Below, piece by piece: positions 4,714 through 27,917 of a stretch of 35,910 bases of DNA. Within the stretch, counting starts at the first letter, position 1. Each line of letters starts with the position of its first letter. A program made the translations under genes and the position numbers. Below the pieces are notes generated by a model. It saw nothing but the letters and a program-made list of their open reading frames with translations. It made no database searches and was not told the DNA's origin. Origin of the DNA: Deltaproteobacteria bacterium (GTDB taxonomy: Bacteria; Desulfobacterota; UBA8473); NCBI GenBank assembly GCA_030623035.1, contig JAUXFK010000003.1, positions 1 through 35,910 on the forward strand, read 5' to 3'.

Positions 4714-4988
4714 GTAACAGTTTAGCTTTTTTAAATGTTATTTGCTTCAATGGTGGTCAAATTTTAACGCGTGCAACTGTTTGAACATCTTAGTGAGCGT
4801 TAAGAAAGAACAGGGGAAAAGCCTCGTTTTTCTAGGATGTTAATCGTTCCAAAGCTTATCGGCTGAATTTAATAGCTGAATGCTGTTCTTTCTTTATGCT
4901 CTTTTAGATGCGAGTTCTGCACGGGTTAAAATTTGATTGCCGTTGAAGCTTGGCCAGTGCTTTCTGTTTCATAAGGCTAAAATAATAC
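4714..4988 (+). mobile_element. MITE-like palindromic element, family A2
   Basis: Ends gtaacagtttagc / gctaaaataatac. Flanks gtataaac / atataaac (7/8 duplication). Near-identical to 13672-13899; core homologous to A1. Confidence 0.85.
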
Positions 4989-13664: not shown

Positions 13665-13671
13665 AATATGT

Positions 13672-13943
13672 GTAACAGTTTAGCTTTTTTAAATTTTAGT
13701 TGCTTCAACGGTGGTCAAATTTTAACGCGTGCAACTGTTTGAACATCTTAGTGAGCGTTAAAAAAAACAGGGGGAAAGCCTTGTTGTTCTAGGATGTTAA
13801 TCATTCCAAAGCTTATCGGCTGAATTTAATAGCTGAATGCTGTTCTTTCTTTATGCTCTCTTAGATGCGAGTTCTGCACGGGTTAAAATTTGATTGCCGC
13901 TTTAGTGACCGATTTTTTTTGCTGAGGGAACTCAATAGCCATT
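13672..13943 (+). mobile_element. Chimeric A2/A1 palindromic element
   Basis: 13672-13899 matches the A2 copy at 4714. The right end gtgaccgattttttttgctgagggaactcaatagccatt is an A1 end. No target duplication. Confidence 0.85.
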
Positions 13944-14019
13944 TAATGTAAAATTTACTGACATTTGAAAAACGAGTATACATCTTATCGATTTTAAAAG
14001 GAAAGGAGGTGATTGATAG

Positions 14020-15798: not shown

Positions 15799-15879
15799 AG
15801 TGCTCTAACTCGTAAATTCGGTGTCGTATTTTAGGTCAGAGTTCCGATCGTTGACCCGTCGGATTCGGGGGACCCTAAA
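15799..15879 (+). repeat. Module C (81 bp), copy 1
   Basis: Reverse complement of 18681-18761 with 2 mismatches. Confidence 0.92.
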
Positions 15880-16230
15880 GTGTAAAGTGCCTAAAGTGAG
15901 CTAAAGTGCCTAAAGTTAAAATATTCTAAGTGACTATTGAGTTAACTCCGAATAAAAGAAATTTCATGTTAATTATTAAAGGGATAGCATTATTAGAAAT
16001 TTATTGGACGCTCTCGTCTCTTATTTTTTAGAATCGAGACGTTACCCATAATGTTTTCGGAGCGAATTCAATAACCATTATATTATATTTTGATTTCATT
16101 CTTAAAATCCGCTCTGATTCTTGTCCTGTTTGCTTTATGGCTGTTTGCTCTAATCGAAGTTCCGTAATACATGACTAATGCTCTGAAAGCGTATCCCTTA
16201 ACTTTAGTTCACTTTAGGCACTTTAAACTT
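15876..16230 (+). mobile_element. Family B element with tandem (c)taaagtg terminal arrays, interrupted by a nested insertion
   Basis: Left taaagtgcctaaagtgagctaaagtgcctaaagtt; right aactttagttcactttaggcacttta. Core nearly identical to 18546-18684. Confidence 0.88.
15929..16079. mobile_element. Nested 151-bp MITE with A1-type ends
   Basis: Ends tgactattgagttaactc / tcaataaccatt. Flanks atattcta / atattata. The empty site is visible at ~18539-18546. Confidence 0.85.
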
Positions 16231-16250
16231 TTAGGTATTAAGGCCGGTTT

Positions 16251-16764: not shown

Positions 16765-16843
16765 GTATTATTTTAGCCTTATGAAACAGAAAGCACTGGC
16801 CAAGCTTCAACTGCAATCAAATTTTAAAAAGCTAAACTGTTAC
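16765..16843 (-). mobile_element. Internally deleted A2 element (ends only)
   Basis: Reverse complement of about 4927-4988 joined to the reverse complement of about 4714-4732. Confidence 0.88.
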
Positions 16844-16876
16844 AAATTAATAAAGGGCATATAGTAGGTAACCGAT

Positions 16877-18495: not shown

Positions 18496-18684
18496 AAGTT
18501 TAAAGTGCCTAAAATGAGCTAAAGTGCCTAAAGTTAAAATATTCTATTTTGATTTCATTCTTAAAATCCGCTCTGATTCTTGCCATGTTTGCTTTATGGT
18601 AGTTTGCTCTAATGGAAGTTCCGTAATACATGACTAATGCTCTGAAAGCGTATTCCTTAACTTTAGTTCACTTTAGGCACTTTA
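18496..18684 (+). mobile_element. Family B element, uninterrupted copy
   Basis: Same terminal taaagtg arrays and core as 15876-16230, without the nested insert. Confidence 0.88.
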
Positions 18685-18761
18685 GGGTTCCCCGAATCCG
18701 ACGGGTCAACGATCGGAACTCTGACCTAAAATACGACACCGAATTTACGAGCTAGAGCACT
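18681..18761 (-). repeat. Module C (81 bp), copy 2, inverted
   Basis: Reverse complement of 15799-15879. Confidence 0.92.
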
Positions 18762-22051: not shown

Positions 22052-22203
22052 GTAACTGTTTAGCCGGATAGTGATTTGTATGGTCTTTGACGAGCATTTT
22101 TGAGTTATTTTGTTAAAGATTCAAATGCCTTCCTTGACCTTGAACAAAATTGCTCATTTCTGGATAGACACTCGTTAGCCCTTTAAAATGGCTAAACAAT
22201 TAC
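22052..22203. mobile_element. Family E MITE containing a family D end
   Basis: TIRs gtaactgtttagcc / ggctaaacaattac. Perfect 8-bp duplication aaaacatc at 22044-22051 and 22204-22211. 22127-22172 is the reverse complement of the D left arm. Confidence 0.85.
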
Positions 22204-25167: not shown

Positions 25168-25782
25168 ATGGATAAAGAGGGATTATTGTTTGTATTATCA
25201 GCCCCATCTGGTGCTGGGAAAACATCATTATGTAAAGAGGTCGTTAGTTTTTTTCCTGATCTATGGCACTCTGTATCATACACTACGAGGCCTTGTAGGC
25301 CAGGGGAGAACGATAGAGTTGATTATCATTTTGTCTCCAAAGAGAAGTTCAAAGAGATGGTTGATACCAGGAAATTTGCAGAATGGTCTGAGATTTATGG
25401 GGATAGATATGGCACTCCAATAAACGCCTTGAAAGAGCATAAAAGCAATGGAATTGACATGATTCTCGATATAGATGGAAAAGGGGCCAGACAGCTCAGG
25501 GATAGCTTTCCAAAAGGTATCTATATATTCGTACTTCCTCCATCGTGGGAAGATCTGGAGGAGAGACTAAGGGCTAGAATGACGAATACGGATAAGGAGA
25601 TTAAAAAACGTTTGAAAAATACAAAAAAAGAGCTTCAGTATATTTTTGACTACGATTATATAGTTATAAATAATAACTTCGAAACGGCAGTATTCGAACT
25701 CATTTCAATAATAATTGCAGAAAGATGCCGCAGAGAGAGGGTCTTTCATAAGGTTGATGAACTATTAAAACCGGGCCTTTGA
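25168..25782 (+). CDS. gmk: Guanylate kinase
   Basis: SAPSGAGKT, SYTTR..RPGE and YGT motifs. Confidence 0.97.
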   Translation: MDKEGLLFVLSAPSGAGKTSLCKEVVSFFPDLWHSVSYTTRPCRPGENDRVDYHFVSKEKFKEMVDTRKFAEWSEIYGDRYGTPINALKEHKSNGIDMILDIDGKGARQLRDSFPKGIYIFVLPPSWEDLEERLRARMTNTDKEIKKRLKNTKKELQYIFDYDYIVINNNFETAVFELISIIIAERCRRERVFHKVDELLKPGL

Positions 25783-25801
25783 ACCGCTTTAAACTTAAAT
25801 A

Positions 25802-25943
25802 GTGTCCATCCAGAAATGAGCGATTTTGTTCAAGGTCAAGGAAGGCGAAGCTTTTAACCACAGGAATATATTGAGATATTTCGAGGATTAAAATCTGAGC
25901 CTGACACAGAGATTGGGCAAAAGGGCCATTTATGGATGGACAC
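25802..25943. mobile_element. Family D MITE, full length
   Basis: TIRs gtgtccatccagaaatg / catttatggatggacac. Perfect 6-bp duplication taaata at 25796-25801 and 25944-25949. Confidence 0.88.
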
Positions 25944-26413
25944 TAAATATTTGCCCGTTCATCTATGAGATCGTGTTCTTTTGTATCTTGAAGTAAACTC
26001 TTTAACTCTTCTATATTTAAACTCCCCATAGTCTCTATATAAAAATTTCCGCTCCAAAGCTTTTTTATCCTGTACTTCTTCTGTATCTCCCTATGCCTAT
26101 TTAAGATTGAAAATGATGTCCTTTCTATTATATCCTTAACAATGCCGGGTATGTAATGGGTGGGTTTGGCACATAAAATCAGATGGGCATGGTCTGGATG
26201 AAGAACCAGCCCAAATAACTCGTATCCCTTATAAAGAGTAATTTCTTTAAAGATTATTTCCAGTTCTGTTGCTGTTTTACTGGTAATTATAGGCTGTTTC
26301 TTGGGTGTAAAGAGTATCAGATGATAACTGATCCTATATGCAAGGTCTGAATATCTATTATAATTTGTTTCCTTAAGGGGTTTGAAATAGGAGCAAAGGA
26401 TAATATGGGGCAT
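25943..26413 (-). CDS. IS200/IS605 TnpA (Y1 HUH)-like protein, catalytic Tyr absent
   Basis: YHLILFTPK, PDHAHL (HUH) and LWSGNFYIETMG are present, but the YIxxQ helix reads LKSLLQDT. Confidence 0.8.
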   Translation of the reverse strand: MPHIILCSYFKPLKETNYNRYSDLAYRISYHLILFTPKKQPIITSKTATELEIIFKEITLYKGYELFGLVLHPDHAHLILCAKPTHYIPGIVKDIIERTSFSILNRHREIQKKYRIKKLWSGNFYIETMGSLNIEELKSLLQDTKEHDLIDERANI

Positions 26414-26469
26414 ATTTTTTTGTGAAATTTTAAATCCCTCTTTTTAAACTGACCTTTAAGTATGATTGA

Positions 26470-27519
26470 TCAGGGAAAGAGGGGCAGGTTCTTTATCCCT
26501 GAGTCCTCAGGGAATCCATACATAATGTTCATATCTTGAATTGCTTGCCCTGAAGCGCCTTTAACCAGATTGTCTATTGCAGATATTACGACTATCCTTT
26601 TTGTCCTTGGATCGAATCGCATTCCTATATCACAGAAATTGCTCCCTTTAACCAAAGAGATATTGGGAAGACTGTCTTCAGGGTGTATTCTTACAAATCT
26701 CTCTTTACTATAGAAATCGGTGTAAATCCCTATTAACTCTGATGTTGAAATGTCTTGAAGGGAGTTTGAATATATAGTGGTCAGTATACCTCTATTTACG
26801 GGTATTAAATGTGGAGTAAAAGAGATGATGACATTTTTATGGGCAAGCAGGCTTAACTCTTGCTCTATCTCAGGTGTATGCCTGTGTTCTCCTATCTTAT
26901 AAGCATTAAGCCCTTCATTAACCTCACAGAAAAGATATTCCGTTGCCACTGTTCGACCGGCCCCAGAGACACCTGATTTGGAGTCCACAACTATATTTTT
27001 TATGTCTATTAAATTGTTCTTCAGTAAAGGGGCGAGTCCGAGTATCGCACTGGTTGGGTAACAACCCGGATTGGCAATAAGTTTCGCCTTTTTTATTTTA
27101 TCCCTGTGCAACTCAGGAAGGCCATAGACAGACTCCTTTAAAAGGTCTGGGGAGGTGTGGCTGCTATACCATTTTTCATAGACCTCAGGATTATTAAAGC
27201 GAAAATCCGCACTGAGGTCTACGACCTTTTTACCCCTCTTCATCAACTCGGGAACGATATTCATTGCTACCTTATGCGGTAAAGCACAGATTATGAAATC
27301 AGAGAGATTACAGATATGATCTGGCGATGGGCTTGTAAATTTAAGGTTTATTTCTGAAGCAAAGGCAGGAAAGACTTCCGACACCTTCATTCCATCAAAC
27401 TTTCTTGATGTCAATGCGGTTATCTTTGCATCCGGATGTCTAAGCATAAGTCTGATCAGTTCTTGACCTGTATACCCACTTGCACCAATTATTGCAACTT
27501 TTAGCATCTTTTTTCTCAC
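26470..27519 (-). CDS. argC: N-acetyl-gamma-glutamyl-phosphate reductase
   Basis: [23 protein letters not shown] and [11 protein letters not shown] motifs. Confidence 0.98.
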
Positions 27520-27525
27520 TGATCT

Positions 27526-27602
27526 CCACAGAAATGCCCCTTTTGCCCAATCTCTTCACTTTCTTTGATCTGAAACAGGATTACTCATTTCTGGATGGAC
27601 AC
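27526..27602 (-). mobile_element. Internally deleted, degenerate family D element
   Basis: aaatgccccttttgcccaatctct ... ctcatttctggatggacac match both ends of D in reverse orientation. Confidence 0.8.
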
Positions 27603-27614
27603 ATAATAATAAAT

Positions 27615-27870
27615 AATGGCTATTGAGTTAACTCAGCAAAGGCGGTCACATTATAACGCGTGCAACTGTTTGAGCAGTGTAGTGAGCGTTAAGAAAGAAC
27701 AGGAGATTGTTTCTTGGTTGTGAGTCGTAACATATTTATTTGTGACTGTCTAATTCAAATGATCAATACTGTTCTTTCTTTATGCTCACTAAATCGCGAG
27801 TTTTGCACGGGTTATAATGTGATTGCCTTTGCTGTGACCGATTTTTTGAAAAGAGAAGTCAATAACCATT
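27615..27870 (+). mobile_element. MITE-like palindromic element, family A1
   Basis: TIRs aatggctattga / tcaataaccatt. Flanks taataaat / taataaaa. Long internal inverted repeat. Confidence 0.88.
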
Positions 27871-27874
27871 TAAT

Positions 27875-27902
27875 AAAAAAAAGGCCAAAGAGGCCTTCTT
27901 TT
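27875..27902 (-). terminator. Intrinsic terminator of rplM-rpsI
   Basis: aaggcc/ggcctt hairpin followed by U8 on the minus strand. Confidence 0.7.
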
Positions 27903-27917
27903 AGATATATAGAAGTT

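Follow-up and report, generated by a model that had tools for sequence, protein, structure and literature searches.

TnpA-L, a single-copy IS200-type TnpA homologue of a Thermodesulfobacteriota clade, is under purifying selection with a nearly freely varying catalytic tyrosine position

Introduction

The TnpA transposases of IS200/IS605 insertion sequences (IS) belong to the Y1_Tnp superfamily and are represented by solved structures from ISDra2 (PDB 2xma, 2xm3 and 2xo6), IS608 (2vju and 2a6m), IS200 (2f4f) and Sulfolobus (2ec2). According to PMC3597680, their active sites are assembled in trans, with the HUH motif contributed by one subunit and the tyrosine by the other, and in a phylogenomic survey of the superfamily (PMC6006769) the glutamine of the YxxxQ motif is given as the third metal ligand. 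The protein described here, for which the name TnpA-L is used, shares with these enzymes the family, the fold, the HUH motif and the order of strands and helices. It differs from them in that the copy studied has no catalytic tyrosine (the position is variable in its family), the glutamine is gone in every member, and the gene is present in a single copy at a fixed site, without tnpB or conserved flanking hairpins. The gene occupies positions 25943..26413 on the minus strand of a 35,910-nucleotide stretch of DNA, hereafter the window, which comprises positions 1 to 35,910 of contig JAUXFK010000003.1 from a Deltaproteobacteria bacterium (assembly GCA_030623035.1). This source genome (G000) is metagenome-assembled, consists of 268 contigs and is 85% complete.

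The RAYT (TnpA-REP) proteins, with E. coli RayT (PDB 4er8) as representative, are like TnpA-L in being host-retained, single-copy Y1 derivatives, and they likewise occur in a palindrome-rich genome. To our knowledge, RAYTs are the only domesticated Y1 transposases known so far, and the full catalytic apparatus is kept in them. As stated in the survey mentioned above (PMC6006769), RAYTs retain both HUH and Tyr, the latter in a Y...NP context. RAYTs cleave repetitive extragenic palindromes (REPs). TnpA-L has neither Tyr nor NP after its last strand. In the same survey, sequences without HuH and Y motifs were set aside as probably non-functional (PMC6006769). A conserved IS200-type protein without the Tyr was not found described in the literature searched, which did not cover subscription journals. 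The TnpA-L of the window is very probably a domesticated Y1 transposase; it persists free of the tyrosine and is clearly under purifying selection.

Results and Discussion

The TnpA-L gene is an intact open reading frame (ORF) with an ATG start that encodes 156 amino acid residues. Reading of the sequence located the motifs YHLILFTPK at residues 30–38, PDHAHL at 73–78, IERTS at 96–100, LWSGNFY at 119–125 and ELKSLLQDT at 136–144, the HUH motif itself corresponding to codons H75-A76-H77 (26183..26191, minus strand). The Pfam model Y1_Tnp (PF01797) aligned with residues 26–139 over its positions 3–116 of 121 (E = 2.7e-19; 69.9 bits, the cut-off being 23), the NCBIfam model for IS200/IS605 transposases (NF033573) gave 74.3 bits (cut-off 55), and phmmer matched the solved TnpA proteins 2fyx, 2ec2 and 2xo6 at E ~1e-11. 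The AlphaFold2 (AF2) model, built on 11 family sequences, had a predicted local distance difference test score (pLDDT) of 85.3 and a predicted TM-score (pTM) of 0.83; its best Foldseek matches were the TnpA proteins of ISDra2, IS608, Sulfolobus and IS200 (E ~2.4e-10 to 7e-7, TM 0.6–0.79), with E. coli RayT 4er8 a far lower match (E 3.6e-4, TM 0.47). Only generic Y1_Tnp clusters were returned by the ESM Atlas. It is clear that, by sequence and fold and far beyond chance, TnpA-L belongs to the Y1_Tnp superfamily, to whose common features it adds a conserved N-terminal strand (ILSSYF) and a C-terminal EH..DEW motif. Genes of this family are called transposase by PGAP-type models and in the source name of one member (P0003). 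TnpA-L nevertheless lacks three features that define IS200/IS605 transposases, namely the Tyr, the Gln and the setting of a mobile element, and it also fails the RAYT model (NF047646; 26.2 bits, below the cut-off of 80) and the REP context. A preliminary description of this DNA, made from the window's sequence, had listed the ORF, the motifs, a co-oriented argC 56 bp away, the lack of tnpB and repeats on both sides; all of these are present, and the Pfam alignment and the structure prediction agree with the IS200-like assignment given there.

Alignment to 2ec2 and to four Tyr-bearing outgroups assigned codon 140 of the window copy (TTA, Leu; 25994..25996, minus strand) to the position of the catalytic tyrosine and codon 144 (ACA, Thr; 25982..25984, minus strand) to the metal-ligand glutamine of YxxxQ. 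Both lie in the C-terminal part at residues 134–155 (25949..26014, minus strand), for which AF2 predicts helices at 134–142 and 144–155, and the protein has no Tyr beyond Y125. Column statistics were obtained for 128 core columns in 16 family sequences, with the columns ranked by entropy; a 17th family sequence (L037) and the four outgroups were considered alongside. In the 16 sequences, the residues at column 140 are L S Y D D Y C Y S S Y C H S Q Q, and C is found in L037. The column thus holds seven residue types (L, S, Y, D, C, H and Q), with Y in 4/17 sequences, and is the third most variable of the 128; parsimony places eight state changes on the tree, and the codons used (TAC/TAT, TGT, GAC, TCC and TTA) are mostly one base away from a Tyr codon. 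All four outgroups have Y here. Column 144 ranks sixth by entropy and contains Q in none of the 17 family members and in all four outgroups. The tyrosine loss that the preliminary description had read from the window copy therefore holds for that copy, with its Leu140, but not for the whole family, four members of which keep Y. In line with its reading of the protein as non-catalytic, Tyr is not needed for the selected function, since the column is nearly free to vary.

The two histidines of the HUH motif, H75 and H77, are invariant in 16/16 family sequences and in 4/4 outgroups. Within the C-terminal helices L141, H147 and D151 are invariant as well, D143 is conserved in 14/16 and W153 in 15/16 sequences, the latter being Arg in the window copy. 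H147 corresponds to the HH of the YxxxQxxHH motif that characterizes the nearest Tyr-bearing relatives and certain tandem proteins described below. The alignment contained no family-specific conserved Tyr, Ser or Thr on the C-terminal helices, and the conserved residues Y30 and Y64 are also present in canonical TnpA motifs.

When 5.8 billion protein clusters were searched by a word index, 11 TnpA-L clusters with 53–100% identity were recovered. A profile hidden Markov model (HMM) search of 1.84 billion representatives clustered at 50% identity gave a single TnpA-L sequence at E <= 1e-30, with 289 bits; matches of 119 and 84 bits came next, among a total of 1266 at E <= 0.001. At 50% identity the family forms one isolated cluster, and in the tree it is monophyletic (97/96 support), its stem measuring 1.25 changes per site. 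The window's GTDB class, order and family are made up of the same 13 species genomes. Eight of these, from four genera, contain an intact TnpA-L with one strong match each (E 1e-78 to 1e-89), while none of 388 other Thermodesulfobacteriota genomes, sampled evenly over the phylum, gave a match at E <= 1e-20. Together with nine further metagenomic sequences, 17 TnpA-L sequences with intact frames and 53–80% identity are available, and in metagenome DNA contigs from four studies the gene body was recovered with 0–1 differences. TnpA-L was found in only one group of sediment bacteria, a class-level clade of Thermodesulfobacteriota. Among the remaining genomes of the class, the gene is cleanly absent from G008 and G011, where argC and pyrF are 43 nt apart with nothing between them, it survives in G004 as a remnant with five stop codons beside a MazG-domain gene, and G006 and G007 are not scorable, their contigs ending at the site.

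Every genome with TnpA-L has one copy, including those of the Tyr-bearing members G005, G009 and G010. A search of the source genome with TnpA-L returned the protein itself and one distant canonical IS200 TnpA (C229:147-587), which is 17–18% identical. The latter is the only canonical IS200-type TnpA of that genome; its HUH motif and its QKYIEEQ helix are intact, and it adjoins era at the start of its contig.

Selection on TnpA-L was evaluated as the ratio of nonsynonymous to synonymous substitution rates (dN/dS) by the method of Nei and Gojobori (NG86) in 21 pairs, several of which were saturated at synonymous sites and gave no estimate. All pairs with a defined dS gave values of 0.08–0.34. 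In the pairs with unsaturated dS, the ratios were close to those of the neighbouring gmk: 0.34 for TnpA-L and 0.27 for gmk in L001–L003, 0.22 and 0.14 in L005–L006, 0.30 and 0.22 in L007–L008, and 0.17 and 0.12 in L004–L007. Furthermore, dN of TnpA-L climbs in step with dN of the neighbouring genes, as vertical descent predicts, and synteny is maintained over divergences at which dS is saturated. Across the 16 sequences 35 columns are invariant; private changes at columns that are otherwise invariant number one in the window copy (W153R) and 0–4 in other members. It is clear that TnpA-L is under purifying selection with a dN/dS like that of its housekeeping neighbours. Since the gene is single-copy, stays at a fixed site, diverges together with its neighbours and is subject to purifying selection, TnpA-L has very probably been domesticated with loss of transposition. 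This agrees with the domestication proposed earlier for the window copy, and for the family as a whole the orthologues are neither absent nor decaying neutrally, dN/dS being well below 1.

The fixed site is defined by gmk. This gene (25168..25782, plus strand; TIGR03263, 218 bits) is the convergent downstream neighbour in the window, and at every locus that reaches far enough the order orf336-orf177-yicC-remA-gmk is followed by TnpA-L on the opposite strand, with pyrF inserted between gmk and TnpA-L in some genera. The upstream side is variable. In the window it is taken by the co-oriented argC (26470..27519, minus strand; TIGR01850, 457 bits), separated from TnpA-L by a spacer of 56 bp (26414-26469); the genus of the window and some members of genus g5 have argC-rpsI-rplM in this position, genus g2 has fbp, one genome has an HD-domain gene, and four lineages (L004, L008, L037 and the G004 remnant) have a small MazG-domain gene (Pfam 1.2e-08). 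Because the upstream neighbours vary between lineages, gmk and not argC is the conserved anchor of TnpA-L. Placement directly behind argC, to which the preliminary description had drawn attention, is thus seen in part of the clade but not throughout it, and a special link to argC is not supported, as the upstream neighbour differs between genera.

No constant operon partner of TnpA-L was found across the loci, and no tnpB near the gene, its neighbours being argC and gmk. The spacers to neighbouring genes go down to 18–20 nt. No minus-strand terminator-like site was detected between argC and TnpA-L, and promoter-like sites were not above shuffles (9 against 6.6 expected). In two g5 genomes (L007 and L012), a well conserved sigma-70-like sequence TTGACT-N17-TATAGT, read by eye, lies ~60–90 nt upstream of the TnpA-L start, which suggests that the gene has its own promoter there.

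The repeats on both sides of the argC/TnpA-L pair proved to be of a different nature from REPs. The "D-type" repeat of the preliminary description is an element of ~142 bp with terminal inverted repeats and a 6-bp TANNTA duplication. A search of the source genome with blastn gave 97 matches at E <= 1e-20 on 76 of its 268 contigs, many of them at contig ends, so that the element probably fragments the assembly. Among 39 full-length copies, 36 were testable, and exact 6-bp duplications were found in 17/36, with a one-base mismatch in seven more; non-cognate pairs of flanks, used as a control, matched exactly in 40/1260 cases. In four sediment and cold-seep metagenome runs the depth of the element was in the thousands; no metagenome contig spanning an empty site was found. 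The D-type repeat is a miniature inverted-repeat transposable element (MITE) of the cut-and-paste, DDE type, unrelated to HUH chemistry. One copy (25796..25949, core 25802-25943) lies across the TnpA-L stop codon, flanked by the duplication TAAATA at 25796-25801 and 25944-25949. The stop codon TAG (25943-25945) consists of the terminal base of the MITE core and TA of the duplication, and removal of the MITE together with one copy of the duplication gives ...AAT ATT TAA, leaving the protein unchanged. The nearest relative, L003, has a 20-nt spacer at this place and a TnpA-L of likewise 156 residues. A second copy, inverted and internally shortened, lies upstream of argC (27529..27608; inverted matches I8 and I22, direct family D12).

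Because the element has terminal inverted repeats and target duplications, TnpA-L is not its mobilizer, as had already been supposed in the preliminary description. The interaction with the local palindromes that was also suggested there is not supported, since the repeat occurs in ~100 dispersed copies and gene-bearing relatives such as L003 have no repeat at this site. With so many dispersed copies, the adjacency to TnpA-L is not special, and it is incidental.

The nearest sequence relatives of TnpA-L, corresponding to the 119- and 84-bit matches, are single-domain YxxxQxxHH Y1 proteins (P0013, P0014 and P0028) and tandem Y1 proteins. The YxxxQxxHH relatives share with TnpA-L the motifs ETLG and KP.H.I and a His seven residues after the Tyr position; the single-domain ones retain Tyr and Gln, unlike TnpA-L. 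Domain 2 of the tandem proteins resembles TnpA-L in that HUH is kept and the Tyr position varies, but these proteins have a second, Tyr-supplying domain, whereas TnpA-L is a lone domain. Descent of TnpA-L from domain 2 of a tandem protein, suggested by the 119-bit match, was considered and is unsupported by the tree, which was obtained by a quick method and has many open forks.

The tandem proteins deserve a description of their own. They are 278–295 residues long (P0012, P0015, P0021, P0031, P0035, P0070 and P0115), and both of their domains match PF01797. Domain 1 lacks the HUH histidines and has YxxxQxxHH, while domain 2 has HUH and A, Y, F or H at the Tyr position. To judge from these motifs, each chain resembles a pseudo-dimer whose two domains would form one composite active site. 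In the literature searched, such an architecture was not found described.

Taken together, the pattern may be explained by the following history. A tnpA gene would have been captured next to gmk in the ancestor of the class-level clade, would then have stopped moving, and would have been passed on by vertical descent as a host gene in single copy. The metal-ligand Gln would have been lost first, along the long stem that leads to the family; once it was gone, transposition chemistry would no longer have mattered, and the Tyr could have drifted independently in several lineages. Since the Gln has been lost and the Tyr is drifting, TnpA-L would be unable to cleave DNA through a covalent 5'-phosphotyrosine and to transfer strands as in peel-and-paste transposition, as far as can be judged from sequence. 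What it appears to have kept is the TnpA fold, a TnpA-type dimer, a basic surface, the HUH metal site and the conserved face of the C-terminal helix with D143, H147 and D151.

The isoelectric point is 8.8–9.9 in all 16 members. A homodimer model of TnpA-L scored 0.66, compared with 0.04 for the best control, the runs sharing at least 81% of contacts and the partner chain having a pLDDT of at least 72; the mark applied to this score was met by 20/30 proteins solved as pairs and 1/23 solved as single chains. The modelled interface comprises residues 25–30, 84–92 and 123–130, including the invariant P84, P89, E127 and T128, and the dimer is predicted to form through the same edge strands as in IS200/IS605 TnpA, although the pass may reflect likeness to the solved TnpA dimers. 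As stated in the title of PDB entry 2xo6, the Y132F mutant of ISDra2 TnpA was crystallized with an uncleaved hairpin and the cleavage site, so that a TnpA without its tyrosine can bind DNA stably. The likeliest activity of TnpA-L would thus be metal-assisted, structure-specific binding of single-stranded DNA or hairpins without cutting, the nucleic-acid binding being suggested by the fold. We consider it fairly likely that TnpA-L is a domesticated protein which, assisted by metal, binds single-stranded or hairpin nucleic acid and does not cleave it; for the binding mechanism as such, the chances appear evenly balanced.

Several observations weigh against this reading. The gene is dispensable, as two clean absences and one pseudogene demonstrate, and only 17 sequences are at hand, all of them from metagenome-assembled genomes or metagenomes. 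No target is apparent: no positionally conserved hairpin flanks TnpA-L in 10 orthologous loci, and no Rfam family was detected near it, either in the window or at the six orthologous loci examined, where a tRNA in L007 was the sole match. The active-site geometry has been argued from alignments only. Four of the 17 members keep the Tyr, and some residual chemistry may persist in these lineages, although they are single-copy and syntenic and give no sign of mobility. Finally, a catalytic centre that has been retained or altered would also account for the strictness with which HUH, H147, D151 and D143 are conserved. This last point leads to the alternative that TnpA-L is still an enzyme, in which the HUH metal site with D143, H147 and D151 activates water or another nucleophile, so that it would act as a hydrolytic nuclease on single-stranded DNA or RNA. 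The invariance of HUH, H147 and D151, with D143 in 14/16, while neighbouring columns are free to vary, would suit such an enzyme, as would the spacing of positions 140, 143/144, 147 and 151 (i, i+3/4, i+7, i+11), which would put them on one face of the predicted helix. H147, however, goes back to the YxxxQxxHH motif already present in the Tyr-bearing outgroups and so marks no new catalytic invention, the C-terminal helices offer no family-specific Ser, Thr or Tyr, and the Y-to-F mutant of TnpA keeps its substrate uncleaved according to the title of 2xo6. We regard the nuclease as unlikely. That TnpA-L pairs with a Tyr-supplying Y1 partner, either to complete an active site or to curb IS200/IS605 transposition in a dominant-negative manner, is an idea for which the trans architecture of TnpA sites (PMC3597680), the natural tandem proteins with an HUH-less, Tyr-bearing domain 1 and an HUH-bearing domain 2 of varying Tyr position, and the canonical IS200 TnpA of the source genome (C229:147-587) may be cited. 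It is very unlikely in view of the low identity of that TnpA (17–18%), the lack of any HUH-less, Tyr-bearing gene in the 85%-complete source genome when queried with PF01797 or with a tandem protein, the absence of a syntenic partner gene, and a tree in which the family groups with single-domain YxxxQxxHH proteins and not with tandem domain 2.

Two further explanations would deny TnpA-L a host function or tie it to the flanking repeats. A dying IS200 remnant that drifts to loss would be in keeping with the lost Tyr and Gln, with deletion or pseudogenization in 3/13 genomes, and with the transposase label given by PGAP-type models and by the source name of P0003. Such a remnant is strongly disfavoured, and indeed highly improbable, because the frame has stayed intact in eight genomes of four genera and in nine metagenomic sequences at 53–80% identity, dN/dS is well below 1 and gmk-like with 35 invariant columns, and synteny is kept where dS is saturated. 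A RAYT/REP-like role, in which TnpA-L would bind or mobilize the D-type palindromic repeats around it, might be imagined from the repeat copies that flank argC and TnpA-L in inverted orientation and from the repeat itself, a long imperfect palindrome with 68–70% self-complementarity. It is scarcely credible, however, for an element whose 6-bp TANNTA duplications and terminal inverted repeats are the signature of cut-and-paste DDE transposition and not of HUH enzymes, which occurs ~100 times across 76 contigs, and which is missing at the orthologous loci of other genera; the RAYT model is also far from its cut-off (26 bits against 80), and separate RAYT-type genes exist on C183, C260 and C116. 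In comparison with RAYT/TnpA-REP systems, the repeats adjacent to TnpA-L are MITEs with target duplications, not REPs.

The domesticated, non-cleaving binder, to which we return, is of interest beyond this locus. The HUH site has been kept as long as the housekeeping neighbours have diverged, which indicates that the HUH fold may be reused without strand-transfer chemistry, and the Tyr-bearing and Tyr-less orthologues at one locus form a natural series for asking what the HUH site does alone. Annotation pipelines can be expected to go on naming such genes "IS200/IS605 family transposase", which overstates the mobile-element load of the genomes concerned. More tentatively, and with less than even confidence, TnpA-L could represent a new functional class of the HUH fold, a transposase turned into a metal-dependent, non-covalent reader of single-stranded DNA structure, or into a hydrolytic nuclease, for host DNA or RNA transactions. 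If that were true, "half-site" HUH proteins, including the tandem proteins with one Tyr and one HUH, would be a recurrent result of Y1 domestication that has not yet been classified, and the family would record the sequence in which the enzyme was disarmed, Gln going first at the base and Tyr decaying independently in several lineages.

Some observations concern the surroundings of TnpA-L and the remaining repeats. PADLOC assigned no defence-system family to TnpA-L, P0012 or P0013. The MazG-domain gene, which is found at L004:1103-1441, L008:5660-5962, L037:1-177 and L026:2591-2869 and has a CxxC...CxC tail, was considered as an obligate partner of TnpA-L and rejected, as it has no homologue in the source genome. 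Three RAYT-type Y1 genes of that genome (C183:4674-4997, C260:22439-22612 and C116:3602-3772) have an intact HUH motif and a helix of the YI(R/H)xNP type, the one on C183 being part of a 340-residue frame with a long C-terminal extension; their products would be better candidates than TnpA-L for any REP-like hairpins. In the window, a further MITE-type match was found at 22127-22177. A second repeat family, a composite intergenic element of ~250 bp with internal 32-nt inverted repeats, is located at 1918-2153, 4714-4988, 13668-13945, 16765-16847 and 27603-27870, and the stretch 27520-27917 alone gave 459 blastn matches in the source genome at E <= 1e-3. A third repeat family is present at 15799-16236 and 18496-18761.

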